A DNA stretch of 59,080 bases from positions 1 through 59,080 of the forward strand of contig CAYWBK010000001.1 of the NCBI GenBank assembly GCA_964455745.1, in the 5' to 3' direction. The notes under the pieces are model-generated. The model was not told the DNA's origin, did not search any database, and worked only from the letters and a program-made list of their open reading frames with translations. Shown one piece after another: positions 1 through 13,351 of this stretch (position 1 is the first letter of the stretch; the number at the start of each line of letters is the position of its first letter). The position numbers and the translations under genes were made by a program. Source of the stretch: an uncultured Armatimonadia bacterium (GTDB lineage: Bacteria > Armatimonadota > Zipacnadia > Zipacnadales > CAYWBK01).

Positions 1-2
1 TC

Positions 3-62
3 CAGACGATGGAGACCCTCGGCAAGAACATGGCGTGGCTACTCAAGAAGCTGAATGCGTAG
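3..62 (+). CDS. 3' end of an unidentified gene (partial, runs off the window start)
   Basis: Frame open from the window edge, ending ...QTMETLGKNMAWLLKKLNA with TAG at 60-62. Too short to assign a family. Confidence 0.3.
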   Translation, partial: QTMETLGKNMAWLLKKLNA

Positions 63-140
63 ACAGCTCGGACGATCTCGACGACAAATCGGCCCTGCAT
101 CACGAAGGACCGCCGCTGTCACATGCGCGCGTCGCGAGGG

Positions 141-761
141 TCATTTGCCATAATAGGTCATGAGGCGGAAGTCCAGATCGTCAGCAAGCTCGTCGAACGT
201 TACGCACGACACTCTCTGCGAGTCCACCATGACCTTGTCGGTTCGCCACCGCAGACGGTCCATCTCTCTGCTCTCGAGGTGTACATCCTTGCCAACCACA
301 ATCAGACCATGGAAACGGGCTCTTCTGCTTCCGAAGACGCTCTCGAAGTCGCCCGTGCTGCGCTGATCCTCCAGCGTCCACAGCCAATCAACCACTTGGG
401 AGAACGCGTGCTCATAGCGGGGCGACCATTCGAGAACCGACCTCGCGCGCTTGACGAAGAGACCGTCAGGGGCTGCGTCCTCGAACTCCACCAGCAGATA
501 GTCGTGTTTGGCTGTGTTCCCCACGATCAGGTCGGCTCTGAAGTGCTCACACAAGGGGTATTCGTGCGTAAGCGCATCTGCAGACCCGATATTGAGTACA
601 TACCCCCCTATCAGCATGGACAAGTTGCATCGAGCCTTGAAGAAGGGCAGGATGTGTTGCCGCTCAGCGAGATAGGGTCTGGAGCGTAGCAGGGCTCTGA
701 GCTCCGCCAGTTCGGTACGACACACCTCGGGATCGAAAACGCGCCGCTCTAACCCCCTCAC
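141..761 (-). CDS. Short DUF4263/Shedu-type PD-(D/E)xK-like nuclease domain protein (206 aa)
   Basis: GTG start overlaps the upstream stop (GTGA at 758-761). Blocks FRADLIVG-x9-YLLVEFED, FSQVVDWL, GLIVVGKD and VTFDELADDL occur in the order typical of DUF4263. Call rests on motif recall only. Confidence 0.5.
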   Translation of the reverse strand: MRGLERRVFDPEVCRTELAELRALLRSRPYLAERQHILPFFKARCNLSMLIGGYVLNIGSADALTHEYPLCEHFRADLIVGNTAKHDYLLVEFEDAAPDGLFVKRARSVLEWSPRYEHAFSQVVDWLWTLEDQRSTGDFESVFGSRRARFHGLIVVGKDVHLESREMDRLRWRTDKVMVDSQRVSCVTFDELADDLDFRLMTYYGK

Positions 762-1048
762 TGTGCACTTCCATCCGCCTGCAAGTGCTTCACGCGGTCA
801 GGCCTCACGATGTCCTCGACTATATAGCCGTCTCCCCGGCGGGAGAACAGGACGCGTAACTGTGGCGACGCTCTGAACGCGTACAAGCCTTCGGCGGAGC
901 CGGTTAGTCGGCGCACGTTGTCACTGGATACGAGTTGTCCTGCGTCGTATGTCCCGAGCAGACTCACCGCGCGAAGGACCTTCCCCTGCTCCGTAGGACG
1001 CAGGGTGCGAAGCGCAATCTCAGCTCGGCCAGCCATGCTTACCGTCAT
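758..1048 (-). CDS. RelE/ParE-fold small protein (96 aa), first gene of a two-gene operon
   Basis: SD AAGGTGA lies before the ATG at 1048. Pattern AEIALRTL..RRLTG..GLYAFR..QLRVLF..YIVEDIV resembles RelE/ParE toxins. Confidence 0.5.
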   Translation of the reverse strand: MTVSMAGRAEIALRTLRPTEQGKVLRAVSLLGTYDAGQLVSSDNVRRLTGSAEGLYAFRASPQLRVLFSRRGDGYIVEDIVRPDRVKHLQADGSAQ

Positions 1049-1097
1049 CGATAATCACCTTACGGCTCGGCCTGCGCTGCTCCGCAGCCGTAACTCA

Positions 1098-1127
1098 ATG
1101 ATAGCCTACCCGTTTCCTGCCCGTCAA
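1098..1127 (-). promoter_or_regulatory. Sigma70-like promoter candidate for the 1048..141 operon
   Basis: Minus-sense TTGACG (1127..1122), 18-nt spacer, TATCAT (1103..1098), about 50 nt upstream of the ATG. Confidence 0.35.
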
Positions 1128-1166
1128 CCGCCGTATGGGCGGAATCCGCGCGCTGCCCGTTTCGCC

Positions 1167-1946
1167 TTACTTGGCTGTGACCCATGCCAGGCACGACTGC
1201 ACCAGCTTCGCGTAGGCATCCCTCGCGGCCACTGCCTTCGCGTCCTTGGGGTCCGCGACGGACAGGGCGCTGGCGTCGACAACCGCATACCTGCCCTGTC
1301 CCTCGGTCGCGGCGACGGCGATGGTGACGCCCCCGGCGGATGCCAGCTTCTCGGCTTGCGGGGCCATCAGCCGCACGCCCGCGGGCGCTGTGCCGAGGTT
1401 CTTGAGGCCTGCGACCGCCGGATGGTCCGTCACCTCGACTGCTCCCGGCCCCCTTCCAAGGATCGCGGTCACATCGAGGCCGAGCATCAGGCCATTCACG
1501 GAGACGATGCGCATGACGTTCGGGTCCGAAGCCCGCACCAGGATCAGCGCCCGCCCCCCGGCCCGCAGGTACTCGGTCAGGACAATCGATTCGGCGTCGG
1601 AAAACTGGCGGCAAGAGCCGACGATGGCGACCGCAGGCATGGCGCGCAAGCCGGCGATCAAGGGGTCCGTGATACCGACCGTCCGCAGCGCCGCGGGGTT
1701 CAGATCGGCCGGCACAAGCCCTGCGAGGGTCTGCGCAATGGCAGGCCAGTCGTCGTCCAGTGCGCCGAGGTCTACCAGCGCCCGGCCCTTGAAGTCATTC
1801 GCCGCCGGGAAAACCTGAAGCCCGGCTTCCGCTGCCGCTTTCTGCCCCGGCGGAGCCGAGGGCAAATCGGCAACCGCCACGGCCAGAACCAAAGCCAGGA
1901 ACGCCGCAACAAACGCGCACACCAGCCGGACGCGAGGCGCTCTCAC
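1167..1946 (-). CDS. Hypothetical secreted/membrane-anchored protein (259 aa)
   Basis: GTG at 1946 overlaps the TGA of the upstream gene (GTGA at 1943-1946). N-terminal hydrophobic segment LVCAFVAAFLALVLAVAVA. The longer ORF reaching 2171 overlaps the oxidoreductase gene and is rejected. Confidence 0.55.
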   Translation of the reverse strand: MRAPRVRLVCAFVAAFLALVLAVAVADLPSAPPGQKAAAEAGLQVFPAANDFKGRALVDLGALDDDWPAIAQTLAGLVPADLNPAALRTVGITDPLIAGLRAMPAVAIVGSCRQFSDAESIVLTEYLRAGGRALILVRASDPNVMRIVSVNGLMLGLDVTAILGRGPGAVEVTDHPAVAGLKNLGTAPAGVRLMAPQAEKLASAGGVTIAVAATEGQGRYAVVDASALSVADPKDAKAVAARDAYAKLVQSCLAWVTAK

Positions 1947-2941
1947 CTGAGCATCACCCGATCGCCCGTCTCGAGGGACTTGTGGATGCCCTCCGCCACC
2001 GCCACGGCCGCCCGCGCGTCTTCGGGCGAGATCAGCGGCTCGCGCCTCGTCCGCACGCACTCGGCGAAATGCTCCAATTGCAGCCTCAGGGCCCCCTGCT
2101 GCTTCCCGGCGAAGACCGGACCGTAGGTCACGTCGGGCCTCTCGGCACGCGTCGCGGACGCTACCTCGCACGATTCGTCGCCCAAACGCACGGCAACGCG
2201 TCCCGTGGTACCGACCAGTTCCATTCTTGCGTCAAGCGTGTTCGGGACACCTGCGGGGACGACCCAGCAGGTCTCCAGGCACCCGACACAGCCGTTCGCG
2301 AACCTCATCAGGGCGAAGATGCTGTCATCGGCCTCGGTGAGCAGCTTGCGCGCGCTCTCGGCATACACCGAGATCACCTCGGAGCCCACAAACCAGCGCA
2401 TGATGTCGATGTCGTGCACGCCGAGGAAGAATGCGACCGAGGTCCGGCTCTGAATGCGCAGACCCGAGGCGAGGATGTTGTTGCGCCGCCCGAAGACCTG
2501 GATCGGGTCGCCCGTCGCCCCGGCGTCGATGGCCTGTTTCGCGACCTGGTAGCGTGGGTCGAAGCGCACCACGTGCCCGACCATGAGGGTGACGCCGGCC
2601 TCGCGGCACGCGGCGATGATCGTGTCGCAGTCGGCAACCGATGTCGCCAGGGGCTTCTCGACGAGCACATGCTTGCCGGCCTGCGCGGCCTTCACGCACG
2701 GCTCGACGTGCCGCTGGTCATCGACGCACACGCTGACGAGCTGCACCTGCGGGTCGGAGATCGCCTCCTCGAGGCTGCCCGCCGCGTTGCAGCCGAACTG
2801 TCCGGCGAACTGGGCGGCCCTATCGGCAACAACGTCATACACCTGAACGAGTCGCGTGCCGGCGAGTTCCGCCCAGATGCGGGCGTGCCCCGTACCCATC
2901 ATGCCAAGGCCGATGACCGCCGCGCCGAGTCTGTCAGACAT
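1943..2941 (-). CDS. Gfo/Idh/MocA family oxidoreductase
   Basis: N-terminal Rossmann motif AAVIGLGMMGTGHA, EKPLA motif, length 332 aa. Confidence 0.9.
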   Translation of the reverse strand: MSDRLGAAVIGLGMMGTGHARIWAELAGTRLVQVYDVVADRAAQFAGQFGCNAAGSLEEAISDPQVQLVSVCVDDQRHVEPCVKAAQAGKHVLVEKPLATSVADCDTIIAACREAGVTLMVGHVVRFDPRYQVAKQAIDAGATGDPIQVFGRRNNILASGLRIQSRTSVAFFLGVHDIDIMRWFVGSEVISVYAESARKLLTEADDSIFALMRFANGCVGCLETCWVVPAGVPNTLDARMELVGTTGRVAVRLGDESCEVASATRAERPDVTYGPVFAGKQQGALRLQLEHFAECVRTRREPLISPEDARAAVAVAEGIHKSLETGDRVMLR

Positions 2942-7952: not shown

Positions 7953-10411
7953 AGAAGAGGGTTCGGGCGGTGCAGCAACGAACCCGGGCTTCGCGCCCCA
8001 TCGTCTTTGGAGGACTACTGCAGGTGGAAGACACCGCGTCGAAGACACCCCGCCCCCACGCACGACTGATGACTGCCGCGGCATTGCTGGCGCTTGTCGC
8101 GCTTGTCGCTCTCGCATATATCCGGTCACTGGCCTTCGGCCAAGCACTCTATGCTTGCGACATCGGGCAGCAAGATTACCCCTGGCAAACCTACCTGGCT
8201 CAGGCCCGCCTGCACGGCGACTGGTTTCCGATCGTGAAGGAGGTGGCCTGCGGCCATCCCCTGTGGGCGGACGGACAGAGCGGGATACTGGACCCGCTCC
8301 ACCTGGTCTGCCTGCTTCCCTTCGCCTCAACTTGGACGTTCGGGCTGACCGTCTTCCTCCATTGCGTAGCCGCTGCCCTGGGGATGTTCCTGCTGGCGCG
8401 ACTGTTTCGGATCAGTCTCACCGGCAGCGTTGTCGCGGGCGCAACATTCGCGCTCTCCGGAGCCGTCGCGACGCACGAGTGGCCGTATCCTCTCATGGCC
8501 ACAGTGGTGTGGATGCCATGGGGTGCACTGGGCGGCATCGAGTGGGCCTACAGACGCACTAGCGGGTGGATGATCGTAGGCGTCCTCGCTGCCGTGTTCA
8601 GTGCGTCCAACCATCCGCAAGAGCTCATCTATACATTCTGCTTCATCGCCGCTGCCGCTCTCGCGTATCAGGCGCTCGTTGCATCGGGTGCAAGAGCGCT
8701 GGAGCGCCGGAGCATCGCAGTGGTTGGGCGCAGCCTCGCTCCCTTCGCATTGGGCCTGGTGTGCTCCGGGATTTGCCTCTATCCCGTGTACGTCATGATA
8801 CACACGTGCGGCGTGGAGCGCGGCGGATGGCGGTTCTTGATCTACGACTCACTGGGTCCGTGGAATCTGGTGACTGCCTTTCTGCCGAACTTCTTCGGAG
8901 CTCCGACTGCGGGCGGCACCTGGGGTACCGCCCAGGTTTGGGAGTCCAGTCTCTACCACGGGGGGCTGGCCGCGCTGCTCGTCCTCGTGGTCCGACCGAC
9001 GAGTGAAGCCCACAGGCGCGCATTCAGGCGCCTGGCTGTGGGCATCATCCTGTTCCTGTTCGTGGCGATGGGCGGGTACAACCCACTGTACCGTCTGGTG
9101 CCCTATCTGCCTGTACTGAACCGGTTCCGGTGTCCGGCCAGATGGGCCATTGTGTCGAGCGGTCTGTTCTGCCTGGCCGTCGGACTGGTGATAGACCGGC
9201 TGCGTCGGCCCGACAACTCCCAGCGGCTGTGGTCGGCATTGGCTCGTATGTGCCTTGGGGTGGGGCTGGCGTGCGGCTTTGCGGCGGCATGGGTGACATT
9301 CGGCAAGCCGATCAATCTCTGGTTGGTACAGAAGGTCATGCACAGGGCCGAGCAGGGAGCCCAGTTGTATGCCTCCTACGCCGGGTTCATCGCCTGTGAC
9401 GCCGCCGAACTGGCGGCTGTATGCCTCGCCGCAGGCTTGGCCTTTCTCGTCGCATCGCGACATCGCGGCTGGGAATCAAGGGCAGTCGGCGCTGCTGTGG
9501 TGCTCGCACTGGCGCAGGTGGTCGTATTCACCTGGCGCTTCGACCCGACGACGGCTCCTGACCGGATCTACCCTGCAGCATCTCTGGGCTCCATATTGGC
9601 GAGCGCCCAGGGCCCTACAGGGCGCGTCATGGTCACCGGCTACGGCGATGATGACACGATCCCGCCCGGCAGTCCTCTGAATTCGCCGCTCGATCCTCTC
9701 CCCGGCGCTCTTTTCGGCGTCAACCGACCGGATTTCTATGGCCCGATGGCGCCGCCGGTCTGCAAACTGATCCGCCACACGGGACATCTGCGGCTGCGGA
9801 GCCCCAGCGTGTCCGCGGCGCTGGGCTGCAACATCCTTTGCGCCGGTCCTGAAGCGGCTGATGTTCCGGCGGGATGGGAGCCTCTGGCACGCCACGATGA
9901 CGACCGCATCTACACGAACGGACTCTACTGCGGCCTGGCTTGGACAGTCAGCCAGAGCACAACCGATGAAGACCTCTGGCAGAGAGTGGAAAACCACGAG
10001 GCGGCTTTGGATGACATGCTCGTGCGGCCGGCGATCAGCCCCGTGGACAGCGGCACCCAGGCTGCGTCTGCAGCGACGCCCGCGCGCCACGTCGACCTCA
10101 CCGCCACAGAGCGCCGTAGCTACCGCTTCCACGTGGATGACGGCCCCAGGCAGTACCTGATCCTGGCGATTTCGAACCTGCCCGGCTGGTCCGCCACCGT
10201 CAACGGCACGCCGGCGCAAATCAGGACCGCCAACACCGCATTCATGGCTGTGGACCTGCCGACAGGGCCGTGCGACGTAGAGTTCAAATACGCGCCATAC
10301 GGGCTGCGGATCGGCGGGGCCATCAGCGCGCTCGGGCTGCTGTGCCTGTTGGTCGTGGTGTTCGCCGACAGACGCCCCACGCGCAGCGATGAGCCGGAGC
10401 CGCCTCGGTAG
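7949..10411 (+). CDS. YfhO-family polytopic membrane protein (putative glycosyl carrier-dependent transferase)
   Basis: Many N-terminal TM segments. C-terminal LPGWSATVNGTPAQI..FMAVDLPTGPCDVEFKYAPYGLRIGGAIS plus a final TM. GTG at 7949 overlaps the sulfatase TGA. Alternative ATG at 8069. Confidence 0.7.
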   Translation: MKKRVRAVQQRTRASRPIVFGGLLQVEDTASKTPRPHARLMTAAALLALVALVALAYIRSLAFGQALYACDIGQQDYPWQTYLAQARLHGDWFPIVKEVACGHPLWADGQSGILDPLHLVCLLPFASTWTFGLTVFLHCVAAALGMFLLARLFRISLTGSVVAGATFALSGAVATHEWPYPLMATVVWMPWGALGGIEWAYRRTSGWMIVGVLAAVFSASNHPQELIYTFCFIAAAALAYQALVASGARALERRSIAVVGRSLAPFALGLVCSGICLYPVYVMIHTCGVERGGWRFLIYDSLGPWNLVTAFLPNFFGAPTAGGTWGTAQVWESSLYHGGLAALLVLVVRPTSEAHRRAFRRLAVGIILFLFVAMGGYNPLYRLVPYLPVLNRFRCPARWAIVSSGLFCLAVGLVIDRLRRPDNSQRLWSALARMCLGVGLACGFAAAWVTFGKPINLWLVQKVMHRAEQGAQLYASYAGFIACDAAELAAVCLAAGLAFLVASRHRGWESRAVGAAVVLALAQVVVFTWRFDPTTAPDRIYPAASLGSILASAQGPTGRVMVTGYGDDDTIPPGSPLNSPLDPLPGALFGVNRPDFYGPMAPPVCKLIRHTGHLRLRSPSVSAALGCNILCAGPEAADVPAGWEPLARHDDDRIYTNGLYCGLAWTVSQSTTDEDLWQRVENHEAALDDMLVRPAISPVDSGTQAASAATPARHVDLTATERRSYRFHVDDGPRQYLILAISNLPGWSATVNGTPAQIRTANTAFMAVDLPTGPCDVEFKYAPYGLRIGGAISALGLLCLLVVVFADRRPTRSDEPEPPR

Positions 10412-10435
10412 GACGTCTGCCAGGAGGTCTACCCC

Positions 10436-13351
10436 ATGTCGCCGCTGTCACTGATTGCCCTGCTCCTCCCGCATTCGGTCCTCGGCGCAGAGGCCATCCG
10501 TCTGCCTGTGATCGCCGACACCTCGCTGCAGGCACATCCGAGCGAAGTCAACTGCAACAGCGGCGCGTCGAGCGTCATCCGCATCAAGGGCAATGAGCAC
10601 TACATGCTCCTGAAGTTCGATCTCGCGCCGCTGCAGGGACAGCGCGTCGCGCAGGCCACGCTGCACCTCCACAACGCCCACCCGAACCTGCTGCGCACGG
10701 TGGGCCTGTCTACCATCGCCGCCGACTGGCAGGAGGGCACCGGGACCGGCGGGCCGGCGACCGACGGCTGCACCTTCACCCGCGCCGTCTGGCCGGACAA
10801 GATGTGGGCCGGGCCGGGCAGCGACTTCCTCGATGTGGCGATCACCCACGGCAACACCATCGTCCGCTATGTGGACATCCGCCAGGAGCCGGACGACTGG
10901 TTCGCGGTCGATGTCGATCCGCTGCTCGTCGACGCGATGATGTGCGGCTTCTCGTATGGCCTGTGCCTGTCCGACGAGAAAGGCCAGACGATGGCCAACA
11001 ATGACGTCCACTCGCGCGAACAGAACGCCTTCGCCCCGTACATGGCGGTCGAACCCGAAATCCCCAGCGCGAGGCTGGCGGCGCTGACACTGGCCCCGGT
11101 CGCCGCCGAGCCCTGGCCGGCTGCGGCGACGTTCGACACCGGGGCGATCCGCGTGAGACTCACCTCGCCGGGCGCGCTGGGGTATCGGGTCCAGTGTGAC
11201 CCGGCATACTCCAGCAAGCGCACGGAACTGCCGCGCTACCTCATTCCCCAGCCTGCGCCTGCCGGGCAGGAGCAGTCCTTCGTCATCCCCGGCCTGAAGC
11301 CCGGTGTGCCTTACGAGGTCCGCGTGCAGGCCGTGGCGTACCTCGGTCGCGAGAGCAACGTGCAAGCGCTCGAGGCGACTGCGAGCGCGGCCAAGGCGAA
11401 GCCTGCTCCGCTGGCGGCCCCGCGGCCCGTTACCAAGGTACTTGCTCAGCCACAAGCAGTTGGCAGCCTACGCGCGTGGATCTGCCCGGCTGAATGCAAG
11501 GTGCATCCGGTAAGCGCCAATGTGCTTGAGGAGGTGGGCGCGGCCAGATATGGTGGACCGCTCGCCGGCGCGTATGCCGGACAGAATCCAGTGTGGCTGC
11601 GCGACACCGCTTACTGCAAAGGCGCGCGCGGCGAAGTCGTCGCAGTTCAACTCATCGTCGAGACGACCAAGGGCACGCCGGTCTCTTTCAGCGTCCAGTT
11701 CGCCCCCGGCGCGGCGAACCCGATGCCGAATCCCGTCGGCGTGTACCGCAACTGGTACGTGAATGACGGTGACTGGTACGCCGACTACATGGCCCCGATG
11801 CCCGACGGCAAGGCCATGATCCCCGCGCCGGACAATGCAGTTCCCGGCCAACGCAATCAGTCGTTCACCATTGTCTGGGAACTCCCGCGCGATGCCAGGC
11901 AGGGCGAGGCAACCGGCCAGGTGCGCGTTGTGCCTGATTCGGGCGGGCCCGGTCCCGTTATCCCGATCCGCATGTGGGTCCGCAACTTCGAGGTCCCCGC
12001 GAAGACGAGTTTCGAGCTGGACCTCAACTGCTACGGGCCGGTGTGCCAGGCCGCCAACTGGGACGATTATCTCGCCCGCGAGCGCAAGTTCTTCGCCGCG
12101 GCGCACGCCCTGCGCGGGACGCTCAACCCGCTGGGGTACTCGCACTCCGGCAACAACGACTTCGGCTGGGTACCGCAAGTCAGCGGCGCGGGCAAGGACA
12201 TCCGCGTCACCGACTGGAGCGTCTACGACCGGCACTGGGGGCCGTACCTCGACGGCAGCGCCTTCGGCGGGGTGAGGGCCGGGGTGCCGGTCTCACATAT
12301 CTATCTACCGCTGTACGAGGGCTGGCCGACGCCGATGGACGGCCATTACACCGGCGGGAACGACATCCGCAAGTACCCGGACAACATCATCGCCCACGCC
12401 ATGACGGCTCCGCCGGTCGAGCAGGCCTTCGACTCGACACTCAAGGAGGCGTTCGTATCGGTGACGCGGCAGTTCGTCGAGCACTTCGCCGAGCGCAGGT
12501 GGCTGCAGACCGACATGCAGTGCTACCAGAACGATAAGTACTACTACAAAGATGAGAAGTCGAACTTCCGGGGCATCTCCTGGTGGTTGCTCGACGAGCC
12601 GATGCACCGGGATGACTGGCTGGCGCTGCGGTTGTTTGCGGGGCTGTACCGGGAGGGCTTGAGGCTGGCAGGTGACACGCCGGCCCCACGGGGCCTGGCG
12701 GGCGAGACGCCCGCCCCACGCGTTGCGGCTGAAGGAATGCCCGCCGCACGCGGAGGCGAAGGGCCTGGCCCGCGCTTCATCTATCGGGGCGACATCTCGC
12801 GGCCCCAGTACCAGCGCGACTGGCTCGACGGGCGCATCGACCTGATGTGCGTCAGCTCGGAGTTGTTCGCGCACCCGCAATACTGCCGGCGTTTCCGCGA
12901 CCAGGGCGTGACCCTGTGGCATTACGGCGAGGCGAACCCGATCTCGCAGACGAATCTGACGGCGGTCGGCTGGGCGCTGAAGGCCTACTGCGCCGGGGCC
13001 GACGGCATCCTGCCCTGGAACTCCATCGGGGGTCCGGGGGCCCTCACGCAGCCGGACCCGACCGGGCTGCTCATCCCCGGAGACCGCTTCGGCGCCACGG
13101 GGCCGGTCGTCAGCCTGCGGCTTCTCGCGCTGTGTCGCGGGCAGGAGGATGTGGAGTACCTGAACCTGTTGGCGAAGCGACGCGGATATGACCGGGACCA
13201 GATGGCGCGACTGGTGAGCGACTTCGTCGGGCTGTCGGGCCGGCAGCAACAGACATCCGCCGAGGACGCCGGGCGTCTGCAGTTCGACATGCTATCGCCC
13301 GAGCAGTTCTCCGAACTGAGGGAGGCGGTCGCGCGGGAGTTGGAGAAGTGA
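10436..13351 (+). CDS. Secreted multidomain glycoside-hydrolase-like protein (N-terminal DNRLRE/CBM-like domain, FN3, DUF4091/GH123-like C-terminal part)
   Basis: SD AGGAGG lies 8 nt upstream. Signal peptide present. YMLLKFDLAPLQGQRVAQATLHLH, PGLKPGVPYEVRVQAV, ...GILPWNSIGG. Confidence 0.65.
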   Translation: MSPLSLIALLLPHSVLGAEAIRLPVIADTSLQAHPSEVNCNSGASSVIRIKGNEHYMLLKFDLAPLQGQRVAQATLHLHNAHPNLLRTVGLSTIAADWQEGTGTGGPATDGCTFTRAVWPDKMWAGPGSDFLDVAITHGNTIVRYVDIRQEPDDWFAVDVDPLLVDAMMCGFSYGLCLSDEKGQTMANNDVHSREQNAFAPYMAVEPEIPSARLAALTLAPVAAEPWPAAATFDTGAIRVRLTSPGALGYRVQCDPAYSSKRTELPRYLIPQPAPAGQEQSFVIPGLKPGVPYEVRVQAVAYLGRESNVQALEATASAAKAKPAPLAAPRPVTKVLAQPQAVGSLRAWICPAECKVHPVSANVLEEVGAARYGGPLAGAYAGQNPVWLRDTAYCKGARGEVVAVQLIVETTKGTPVSFSVQFAPGAANPMPNPVGVYRNWYVNDGDWYADYMAPMPDGKAMIPAPDNAVPGQRNQSFTIVWELPRDARQGEATGQVRVVPDSGGPGPVIPIRMWVRNFEVPAKTSFELDLNCYGPVCQAANWDDYLARERKFFAAAHALRGTLNPLGYSHSGNNDFGWVPQVSGAGKDIRVTDWSVYDRHWGPYLDGSAFGGVRAGVPVSHIYLPLYEGWPTPMDGHYTGGNDIRKYPDNIIAHAMTAPPVEQAFDSTLKEAFVSVTRQFVEHFAERRWLQTDMQCYQNDKYYYKDEKSNFRGISWWLLDEPMHRDDWLALRLFAGLYREGLRLAGDTPAPRGLAGETPAPRVAAEGMPAARGGEGPGPRFIYRGDISRPQYQRDWLDGRIDLMCVSSELFAHPQYCRRFRDQGVTLWHYGEANPISQTNLTAVGWALKAYCAGADGILPWNSIGGPGALTQPDPTGLLIPGDRFGATGPVVSLRLLALCRGQEDVEYLNLLAKRRGYDRDQMARLVSDFVGLSGRQQQTSAEDAGRLQFDMLSPEQFSELREAVARELEK
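12665..12753. repeat. Three REP-like units embedded in frame in the CDS
   Basis: ctggcaggtgacacgccggccccacgg, cctggcgggcgagacgcccgccccacgcg and gaaggaatgcccgccgcacgcgg encode LAGDTPAPRGLAGETPAPRVAAEGMPAARGG. The same repeat occurs in intergenic regions at 38.7, 40.0 and 44.6 kb. Confidence 0.6.

Follow-up and report, generated by a model that had tools for sequence, protein, structure and literature searches.

A nuclease-only Shedu protein with an E-x-E motif III and its RelE/ParE-superfamily partner: a putative two-gene defence module in an uncultured Armatimonadia bacterium

We analysed a stretch of 59,080 nucleotides from an uncultured Armatimonadia bacterium (GenBank assembly GCA_964455745.1, contig CAYWBK010000001.1, positions 1 to 59,080 of the forward strand; hereafter, the window), in which a preliminary description made from the letters alone had pointed to a pair of overlapping open reading frames (ORFs) between positions 141 and 1,127. 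The larger ORF encodes a protein that we assign to the nuclease-only (Type 2) class of the Shedu immune nucleases, here designated SduA, with a glutamate at the position of the canonical motif III lysine; the smaller one encodes a divergent protein of the RelE/ParE superfamily, hereafter the partner, which was found directly upstream of SduA in every testable locus of a clade spread over more than 10 phyla. On balance, and with modest confidence, we lean toward the interpretation that the two genes constitute a self-contained Shedu-type defence module, in which SduA would be the effector and the RelE/ParE-fold partner would bind and regulate that nuclease in trans. The coordinates of the pair and of its overlap, as given in the preliminary description, agreed with our own reading of the ORFs and their translations, in which every one of the peptide motifs quoted there for both proteins was also found:

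141..761, minus strand: SduA gene, 206 amino acids (aa), GTG start; assigned to the nuclease-only (Type 2) Shedu proteins.
758..1048, minus strand: partner gene, 96 aa, ATG start; divergent RelE/ParE-superfamily protein, as read from the ORF translation.
758..761, minus strand: GTGA overlap of 4 nt, the TGA stop of the partner gene lying within the GTG start region of SduA.

The larger ORF had been proposed to encode a DUF4263 nuclease, which identification was confirmed by family models and by fold. SduA matched the Pfam family SduA_C (PF14082) with an E-value of 1.4e-25 and 90.8 bits (cutoff 27), residues 35–192 aligning to positions 5–158 of the 159 in the profile, and matched the PADLOC SduA model PDLC00379 end to end (E 2.2e-80; residues 1–204 on positions 1–205 of 211). 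More than 110 relatives of 205–215 aa were found, several of which NCBI calls "Shedu immune nuclease family protein". Sequence and profile searches of the PDB with SduA matched no Shedu structure, so that the Shedu fold was recognised by structure comparison alone: the alignment-based AF2 model (pLDDT 92.6, pTM 0.90) had as its best Foldseek matches the E. coli SduA (8ps4) and the nuclease domain of the B. cereus Shedu (8ti9), with a probability of 1.00 and TM values of 0.63–0.69. In the literature, Shedu proteins in which sensor domains precede the nuclease at the N-terminus are called Type 1 and those consisting of DUF4263 only Type 2, which latter class comprises 2,286 of 7,687 proteins (PMC10441436). 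In the present protein all 206 aa align to the nuclease-only model and motif I is located at residue 33, there being no fused N-terminal sensor or regulatory domain; by sequence and model, SduA belongs to Type 2 and is a DUF4263 PD-(D/E)xK nuclease, whose catalysis is predicted. The approximately 60 aa that had been thought to precede the nuclease core do not do so, for that stretch carries Glu33 of motif I, and the Pfam match begins at residue 35; those residues are part of the nuclease domain and no remnant of a sensor. Residues 1–48 are conserved across the homologues, which conservation argues that the GTG start is correct. The source annotation, for its part, starts SduA at Met49 (158 aa) and thus cuts off motif I, the module corresponding to positions 9451–10477 of our locus L081.

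The catalytic motifs of SduA were located as follows, the residues published for two characterised Shedu nucleases being given for comparison; the 80 loci mentioned are genomic loci encoding SduA relatives, which also served as the sample for the pairing analysis described below:

663..665, minus strand: codon of Glu33, nuclease motif I; conserved to 90% or more in alignment A1, invariant in the 80 loci.
531..533, minus strand: codon of Asp77, nuclease motif II; invariant.
480..488, minus strand: codons of Glu92-Phe93-Glu94, motif III; Glu in place of the canonical Lys.
396..398, minus strand: codon of Gln122, nuclease motif IV; invariant.
B. cereus Shedu, motifs I–IV: E204, D249, E264/K266, Q295.
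E. coli SduA, motifs I–IV: E226, D269, E283/K285, Q314.
SduA family of the present module, motifs I–IV: E33, D77, E92/E94, Q122.

Since the spacings between these residues (44, 15, 2, and 28 here; 45, 15, 2, and 29 in B. cereus; 43, 14, 2, and 29 in E. coli) match, Glu94 occupies the position of K266 in the B. cereus and of K285 in the E. coli protein. The replacement of the canonical Lys, noticed in the preliminary description, was corroborated by this comparison, but what had there been treated as an oddity of the present locus proved to be invariant across the whole clade: the pattern E..D..E-x-E..Q..DW was found in the 80 genomic loci and in five copies from plasmids or phages, even at identities as low as 28%, and in all of those 85 sequences motif III had Glu instead of the Lys of the canonical E-x-K.

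Whether such an enzyme would still cut DNA can be judged from its relatives and from the restriction enzymes. In E. coli SduA the K285A substitution abolishes both cleavage and immunity, and K557A likewise identifies the motif III Lys as essential in V. cholerae SduA; among restriction enzymes a motif III Glu is rare, exchanges of Lys and Glu are deleterious in both directions, and the Lys-to-Glu change inactivates EcoRV and EcoRI (PMC3025578). The E-x-E Shedu might, on those grounds, be taken for a dead pseudo-nuclease that serves as a DNA-binding scaffold or sensor, the killing being left to the partner or to unlinked factors. BamHI (E77, D94, E111, E113) and OkrAI are, however, active two-metal enzymes with precisely the E, D, E-x-E set (PMC3025578), and these two as well as BtsCI function with exactly the Glu-for-Lys substitution in question; furthermore, dead enzymes normally lose the constraint that here keeps motifs I–IV, the Glu that stands in for Lys among them, invariant over more than 10 phyla. 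A dead enzyme is in our opinion very unlikely and, because all the metal-binding positions are invariant, we infer a working site instead: the active site of SduA is plausibly of the BamHI type, and the E-x-E Shedu plausibly active.

The partner was less readily classified. Alone, the 96-aa protein had no match in Pfam, PADLOC, NCBIfam, PHROGs, or the PDB, and a word-indexed homologue search returned only the protein itself; the orphan status suggested by these single-sequence searches was overturned by tblastn on related loci and by an exhaustive HMMER search, the latter giving 95 hits, of which about 85 were proteins of 77–140 aa (mostly 85–115 aa). The large hits with multiple matching stretches in that search were spurious, being WD40 propellers (P0145, P0178) or other unrelated domains (P0151, P0165). 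With a profile of 71 members the best hits in the PDB were YoeB-type toxins, just under significance, and with profile A3 (78 members) the P. horikoshii RelE was matched with an E-value of 2.3e-4 (1wmi_A, the identity of the entry having been confirmed), followed by S. aureus YoeB (1.2e-3 and 5.9e-3) and HigB (0.075), in alignments that span the whole domain. At the level of individual members, 43 Pfam hits were to families of the RelE/ParE type (ParE_toxin 17, Gp49 10, HigB-like 7, ParE_like 4, YoeB 2, and one each for YafQ, MqsR, and YhaV), none of which hits attains the gathering score. Two members matched PHROG 1213, "RelE-like toxin" (E 9e-5 and 8e-4), two are named RelE by JGI, and in a Vibrio phage element the depositors themselves label the partner gene "RelE-like", the labels of the two genes standing next to each other in the GenBank record without comment. 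Comparison of the partner profile with one YoeB fragment by hhalign gave a probability of 16% (P 0.0016), which result is weak and concerns a target picked after the fact. Foldseek searches with a poor single-sequence model of the partner returned nothing significant, about 20 of the top 50 entries being RelE-superfamily toxins. Taking the profile results together, we place the partner in the RelE/ParE superfamily, at the superfamily level only; the earlier assignment of the small ORF to that group is upheld in this restricted sense, that is, by profiles and not by the single sequence, which matches nothing.

Within the partner family a basic patch is conserved (K/R at positions 47, 59, and 65), in which Arg65, kept in 88–92% of the sequences, aligns to the conserved Arg of RelE and YoeB. 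The best-conserved residue is nevertheless a near-invariant Asp79, which is peculiar to the family, and the family alignment contains no conserved C-terminal His or Tyr; for reference, the catalytic residues of YoeB are E46, R65, H83, and Y84. Next to the partner there is no cognate antitoxin gene, non-coding DNA lying upstream and SduA downstream, so that the earlier remark about a toxin-fold protein with no visible antitoxin was accurate. The gene is easily overlooked: the source metagenome annotation has no gene at the 96-aa ORF, and on the Ri plasmid pRi1724 (locus L092) the partner ORF is absent from the PLSDB gene table though present in the DNA.

The association of the two genes was examined in both directions. 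Of the 80 loci, two were cut by contig ends, which left 78 testable. A tblastn search of the 80 loci showed the partner immediately before SduA in some 25; a profile search in two rounds then joined all 77 upstream ORFs to the partner family, and in the end a partner was located directly upstream of SduA in 78 of the 78 testable loci, the Neobacillus copy having a non-canonical start codon. The phyla and classes represented include Cyanobacteria, Planctomycetota, Desulfobacterota, Alpha-, Beta-, and Gammaproteobacteria, Bacteroidota, and Bacillota, as well as Armatimonadota, Verrucomicrobiota, Chloroflexota, Acidobacteriota, Gemmatimonadota, and others. All five plasmid or phage copies inspected likewise carry the pair (Aliarcobacter, Enterobacter, Pantoea, Ri plasmids, and a Vibrio phage element), so that neither in those copies nor in the 78 loci was SduA a single-gene system. 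In the reverse direction, eight partner proteins were found through their own sequence, and in 10 of the 11 places where they occur the next gene was an SduA_C gene encoding 207–213 aa, the remaining place having a 35-aa stub where SduA would be. Co-occurrence in related genomes, the very point on which the preliminary description had staked its proposal, was thus strongly borne out.

The junction and the sequences of the two genes also behave as those of a unit. An identical 4-nt overlap was present at 39 of 77 junctions, and in 68 of the 77 the distance was 20 nt or less; the pairwise distances of partner and nuclease are correlated (Mantel r 0.79, with none of 2000 permutations as high), the partner evolving about twice as fast (mean pairwise identity 23% versus 45% for the nuclease). 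A Rosetta-stone search detected no fusion of partner and SduA, the long homologue P0084 (283 aa) having just a C-terminal tail. The alternative that the two ORFs are unrelated neighbours, or that the small one is no gene, could draw upon the missing gene call in the source annotation and upon the single sequence that matched no family and retrieved only itself, but that alternative is refuted by the some 85 stand-alone relatives, the two-way co-occurrence, the co-evolution, and the conserved overlap of the junction. These comparative data indicate that the partner forms an obligatory unit with the nuclease-only Shedu in the E-x-E clade.

The integrity of the two genes may differ within the pair. 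Six of the 80 SduA genes (L011, L012, L017, L022, L050, and L070) contain one in-frame TAA or TAG each, affecting six different codons; those frames are otherwise full length and their partners intact, and two of the six come from isolates (Anabaena azotica and Dolichospermum planctonicum). In appearance these cases resemble knock-outs, each arisen independently, of a nuclease that is costly to its host.

In several lineages the partner domain is preceded by additional sequence. In nine Nostocales loci (L014, L019, L022, L031, L032, L040, L048, L050, and L060) it forms the C-terminus of a protein of about 320–414 aa, whose N-terminus, in the two that were scanned, has an REase_AHJR-like nuclease fold (PF18743, E 2e-24), followed by a helical region of about 200 aa in which an RN-LAHGY (Rx4H) motif is invariant. 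That region resembles a HEPN domain on visual inspection, but the identification was supported neither by Pfam, PADLOC, and NCBIfam nor by a profile search of the PDB. In Planctomycetes there are three conserved N-terminal extensions of 100–170 aa (in L017/L021/L026, L043/L070/L047, and L062/L075), the true start codons of which are uncertain in these GC-rich genomes and for which no Pfam or PADLOC match was obtained. Finally, in locus L028 (3477–3995) the partner domain stands behind a Phd/YefM segment, namely the N-terminal half with which that antitoxin binds DNA (31.2 bits; cutoff 29.8), this being the only locus with a Phd/YefM domain, and there in one polypeptide with the partner. It is from the Phd/YefM family that YoeB and ParE-type toxins classically draw their partners. 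By analogy, the additional N-terminal domains would serve as alternative sensors; it is mainly because their variety mirrors that of the sensor domains of Type 1 Shedu that we put the partner on the sensing and regulatory side.

Gu et al. suggested that Type 2 enzymes "may be constitutively active", and the nuclease-only construct of the B. cereus Shedu (residues 171–380) is indeed highly toxic and constitutively active (PMC10441436); in E. coli SduA, toxicity is limited by the N-terminal domain. From the toxicity of that isolated domain and the restraint exerted by that N-terminal domain, a nuclease of this kind would be expected to need a regulator, and the partner appears regulator-like in that it evolves faster than the nuclease and acts as a platform for fusion with variable N-terminal domains. 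We therefore propose, as a working model, that the downstream gene product SduA would be the effector, a DNA nuclease with a BamHI-type site, and that the partner, produced in a fixed proportion to SduA through translational coupling, would bind to the nuclease and so replace in trans the N-terminal domains that are fused in other Shedu. In that capacity the partner would restrain an otherwise constitutively active, toxic nuclease, or couple the nuclease to an infection signal, or both, and those partners with acquired N-terminal domains would represent alternative sensors. A more far-reaching proposal, which we advance tentatively and as possible rather than probable, is that the whole E-x-E branch of Shedu would be an obligatory two-gene system, into which a toxin-fold protein would have been taken as regulator in trans and as a platform for sensors; in its boldest form the partner would still cut ribosome-bound mRNA, so that the operon would provide an RNA effector along with the DNA effector.

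The roles might also be assigned in the reverse manner, the RelE-like protein being a ribosome-dependent mRNA interferase effector and SduA its neutraliser and/or DNA-sensing subunit, from which infection would free the RNase. The partner's membership in a toxin superfamily and its want of an antitoxin gene of its own would agree with that assignment, but the supposed neutraliser is the more conserved of the two proteins (45% versus 23%) and keeps all its catalytic residues invariant, which is the signature of an enzyme rather than an antitoxin. Although the basic patch has been kept, including the Arg aligned to the conserved one of RelE and YoeB, the partner has no conserved C-terminal His, Tyr, or Arg such as those of YoeB, RelE, and HigB, and the residue it conserves best is Asp79. 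The gene order would be suitable, for in higBA and Gp49-type modules the toxin gene comes first, and the Phd/YefM antitoxin-type domain fused to the L028 partner may be cited to the same effect; yet six loci combine an intact partner with an SduA interrupted by a nonsense codon, and one has the 35-aa stub, conditions that could hardly be tolerated with SduA as the antidote. We accordingly judge a reversal of roles to be distinctly unlikely.

The surroundings of the pair in other genomes bear on what the module may be for. Its neighbours there include a relaxase, integrases, a Mu-type transposase with TniB, and CTD10/MC6/DUF2326, as well as SocA/Panacea, CcdAB, ParDE, an NERD-helicase, TIR, and a GajB-like gene, which neighbourhoods are typical of mobile and conflict islands. 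The copy on a Pantoea IncFII plasmid (L093; NZ_CP143401) has antirestriction, DUF1380, and psiB/psiA genes around it in the leading region; that on an Enterobacter plasmid (L091; NZ_CP074151) adjoins ssb and the gene for a phage head protein; that of the Vibrio phage element (L094; PQ189353) adjoins a gene noted as Gabija GajB-like; and copies of the pair occur on conjugative plasmids. In one locus (L095, 3001–3920) the pair interrupts a cluster of formate dehydrogenase genes, a situation similar to that in the window, where it is a low-GC insertion between housekeeping genes. In another (L097, 169–2150) it is located just downstream of a gene with a NucS_C domain, and in structure the Shedu nuclease has its nearest relative in NucS/EndoMS.

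Residence on plasmids (the Ri plasmids, the IncFII leading region) and on integrative and prophage-like elements would be equally expected of a plain addiction module devoid of any immune role, in which SduA would be a DNase toxin and the partner a labile, antitoxin-like inhibitor, the pair serving to stabilise its mobile carriers; the frequent vicinity of classical toxin–antitoxin pairs (CcdAB, ParDE) points in the same direction. Many copies, however, are chromosomal and situated between housekeeping genes. The tight coupling, the fast evolution of the partner, and the toxicity of isolated Shedu nuclease domains would suit such a module too, but variable, sensor-like fusions of the partner make little sense for a plain antidote, and every DUF4263 system tested experimentally has been anti-phage. 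As the two roles are not mutually exclusive, this explanation overlaps with that of a two-gene defence system, and in its plain form we deem it unlikely.

Several observations weigh against the defence module that we favour. In the present window the pair lies among ordinary metabolic genes, with a Gfo/Idh/MocA oxidoreductase and a protein of unknown function on one side and a flavodoxin-like reductase and a phosphoribosyltransferase on the other, and not in a defence island. The single-sequence model, which predicts the order helix-helix-strand-strand-strand and is the only model of the partner, has a poor pLDDT of 54. The conserved basic patch leaves room for an RNase activity of the partner's own. 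The asymmetry in decay, with six nonsense codons in SduA and none in the partner, is not significant given the sizes of the genes (P ~0.10). Lastly, the inactivation of EcoRV and EcoRI by the same Lys-to-Glu change (PMC3025578) leaves the activity of an E-x-E Shedu plausible rather than proven.

The layout of the module in the window is consistent with its being expressed as a unit. Besides the two genes and their overlap, which latter we take from the sequence as a sign of translational coupling between the partner and SduA frames, we recorded the following features:

1055..1061, minus strand: Shine-Dalgarno-like AAGGTGA, 6 nt before the partner ATG at 1048.
1098..1127, minus strand: sigma-70-like promoter candidate, TTGACG (1127..1122), 18-nt spacer, TATCAT (1103..1098).
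1..62, plus strand: 3' end of a convergent gene for a flavodoxin-like FMN reductase, with the stop codon at 60–62.

Both expression signals named in the preliminary description were present at these positions. The promoter candidate has 10 of 12 consensus matches and is the sole such site in positions 1..1400, where shuffled sequences lead one to expect 0.3; being a consensus match alone, TTGACG-18 nt-TATCAT is a putative promoter. A non-coding stretch of 118 nt, which includes that site, lies upstream of the partner gene. The convergence with the gene at the edge of the window, noticed beforehand, was likewise verified: that gene (10556–11131 in locus L081) belongs to the families Flavodoxin_2/FMN_red and, standing outside the two-gene unit, delimits it at its end. 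The longest ORF upstream of the module (1167–2171, minus strand) encodes 334 aa from a GTG start and stops 118 nt short of the partner gene; the source annotation gives it 251 aa and no family. A lower G+C content of the region, previously guessed by eye, was confirmed upon calculation, with 0.590 in the module versus a mean of 0.649 ± 0.022 in the window, which value is among the lowest 1.7% of equal-sized windows; the G+C content at third codon positions was 0.68 and 0.71 in the two module genes versus 0.87 and 0.75 in the adjoining genes. This low G+C content marks the module as foreign in the present genome. The whole window (1–59,080) was devoid of tRNA and tmRNA genes and of Rfam families scoring at the gathering threshold.

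The literature and the PADLOC SduA model treat Shedu as one protein, and how the toxic nuclease is silenced in the approximately 30% of Shedu that lack a sensor is an open question, to which the answer, for at least one widespread clade, may be a separate and previously unannotated small protein. If this is true, the RelE/ParE toxin fold would have been reused as a regulatory or adaptor subunit, and a sizeable part of a well-studied family would have to be read differently, in accordance with a mechanism that we infer. With the clade-wide change of Lys to Glu, nature offers a case in which an immune nuclease can be tested for BamHI-type chemistry. In addition, the partner gene is often missed by gene callers; rules of detection could be improved if they required the pair, and the tractable copies in Enterobacter, Pantoea, and Vibrio elements make the hypothesis directly testable.

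With respect to novelty, neither a Type 2 partner nor a RelE/ParE protein nor a motif III Glu is mentioned in the accessible Shedu literature, our search of which extended neither to subscription journals nor to the final version of Gu et al.; a search for "Shedu" together with "RelE-like" gave no paper with both, the papers on Shedu and on RelE or toxins concerning unrelated systems. A nuclease-only class is already recognised and the present clade already has a PADLOC model, so that the novelty once attributed to a minimal Shedu does not stand; the new elements are the obligatory partner and an E-x-E that extends over the whole clade. The suggestion of a split Shedu fits the architecture of the module, though there is no sign that a Shedu N-terminal domain gave rise to the partner.

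Among the known systems, the Type 2 Shedu (PMC10441436; PDLC00379) are the closest to SduA, with which they share the DUF4263 PD-(D/E)xK domain, the lack of an N-terminal sensor, a size about that of the B. cereus 171–380 construct, and motifs I, II, and IV plus the first Glu of motif III at the same spacing; Shedu has been described, however, as a single-gene system, whereas the present clade always has the upstream partner and, in motif III, Glu for Lys. The likeness of BamHI and OkrAI to SduA consists in the E, D, E-x-E constellation, with Glu where most PD-(D/E)xK enzymes have Lys; it is a likeness of active-site chemistry, deduced from the spacing of residues without a metal-bound structure, and family, oligomeric context, and biology differ. 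To the RelE, YoeB, HigB, Gp49, and ParE proteins the partner is similar in its size of about 90–100 aa, the predicted order of its secondary structure, an N-terminal "A..L..L" helix, and strands of the form "Y.R...R(I/L)(I/L)F"; it differs from the type II toxins of that superfamily in having no antitoxin gene, in the nuclease encoded downstream, and in reaching no Pfam threshold, and from the RNase members in that their C-terminal catalytic residues are not conserved and Asp79 is specific to the partner. The only two-component Shedu described so far is KELShedu of E. coli, composed of KELA and KELB, of which both are required and the small partner binds and stabilises the nuclease (PMC12577705). 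Both systems are bicistronic, with a small upstream gene (KELA, 110 aa) almost abutting the gene of the DUF4263 nuclease, but KELA, a WYL-like SH3 beta-barrel, binds double-stranded DNA and docks on an N-terminal domain of the 361-aa KELB (PMC12577705), whereas the partner of the present module is RelE/ParE-like, with a predicted alpha-alpha-beta-beta-beta order, and its nuclease has no N-terminal domain for docking. KELA, being of a different fold, was for that reason ruled out as a relative of the partner.

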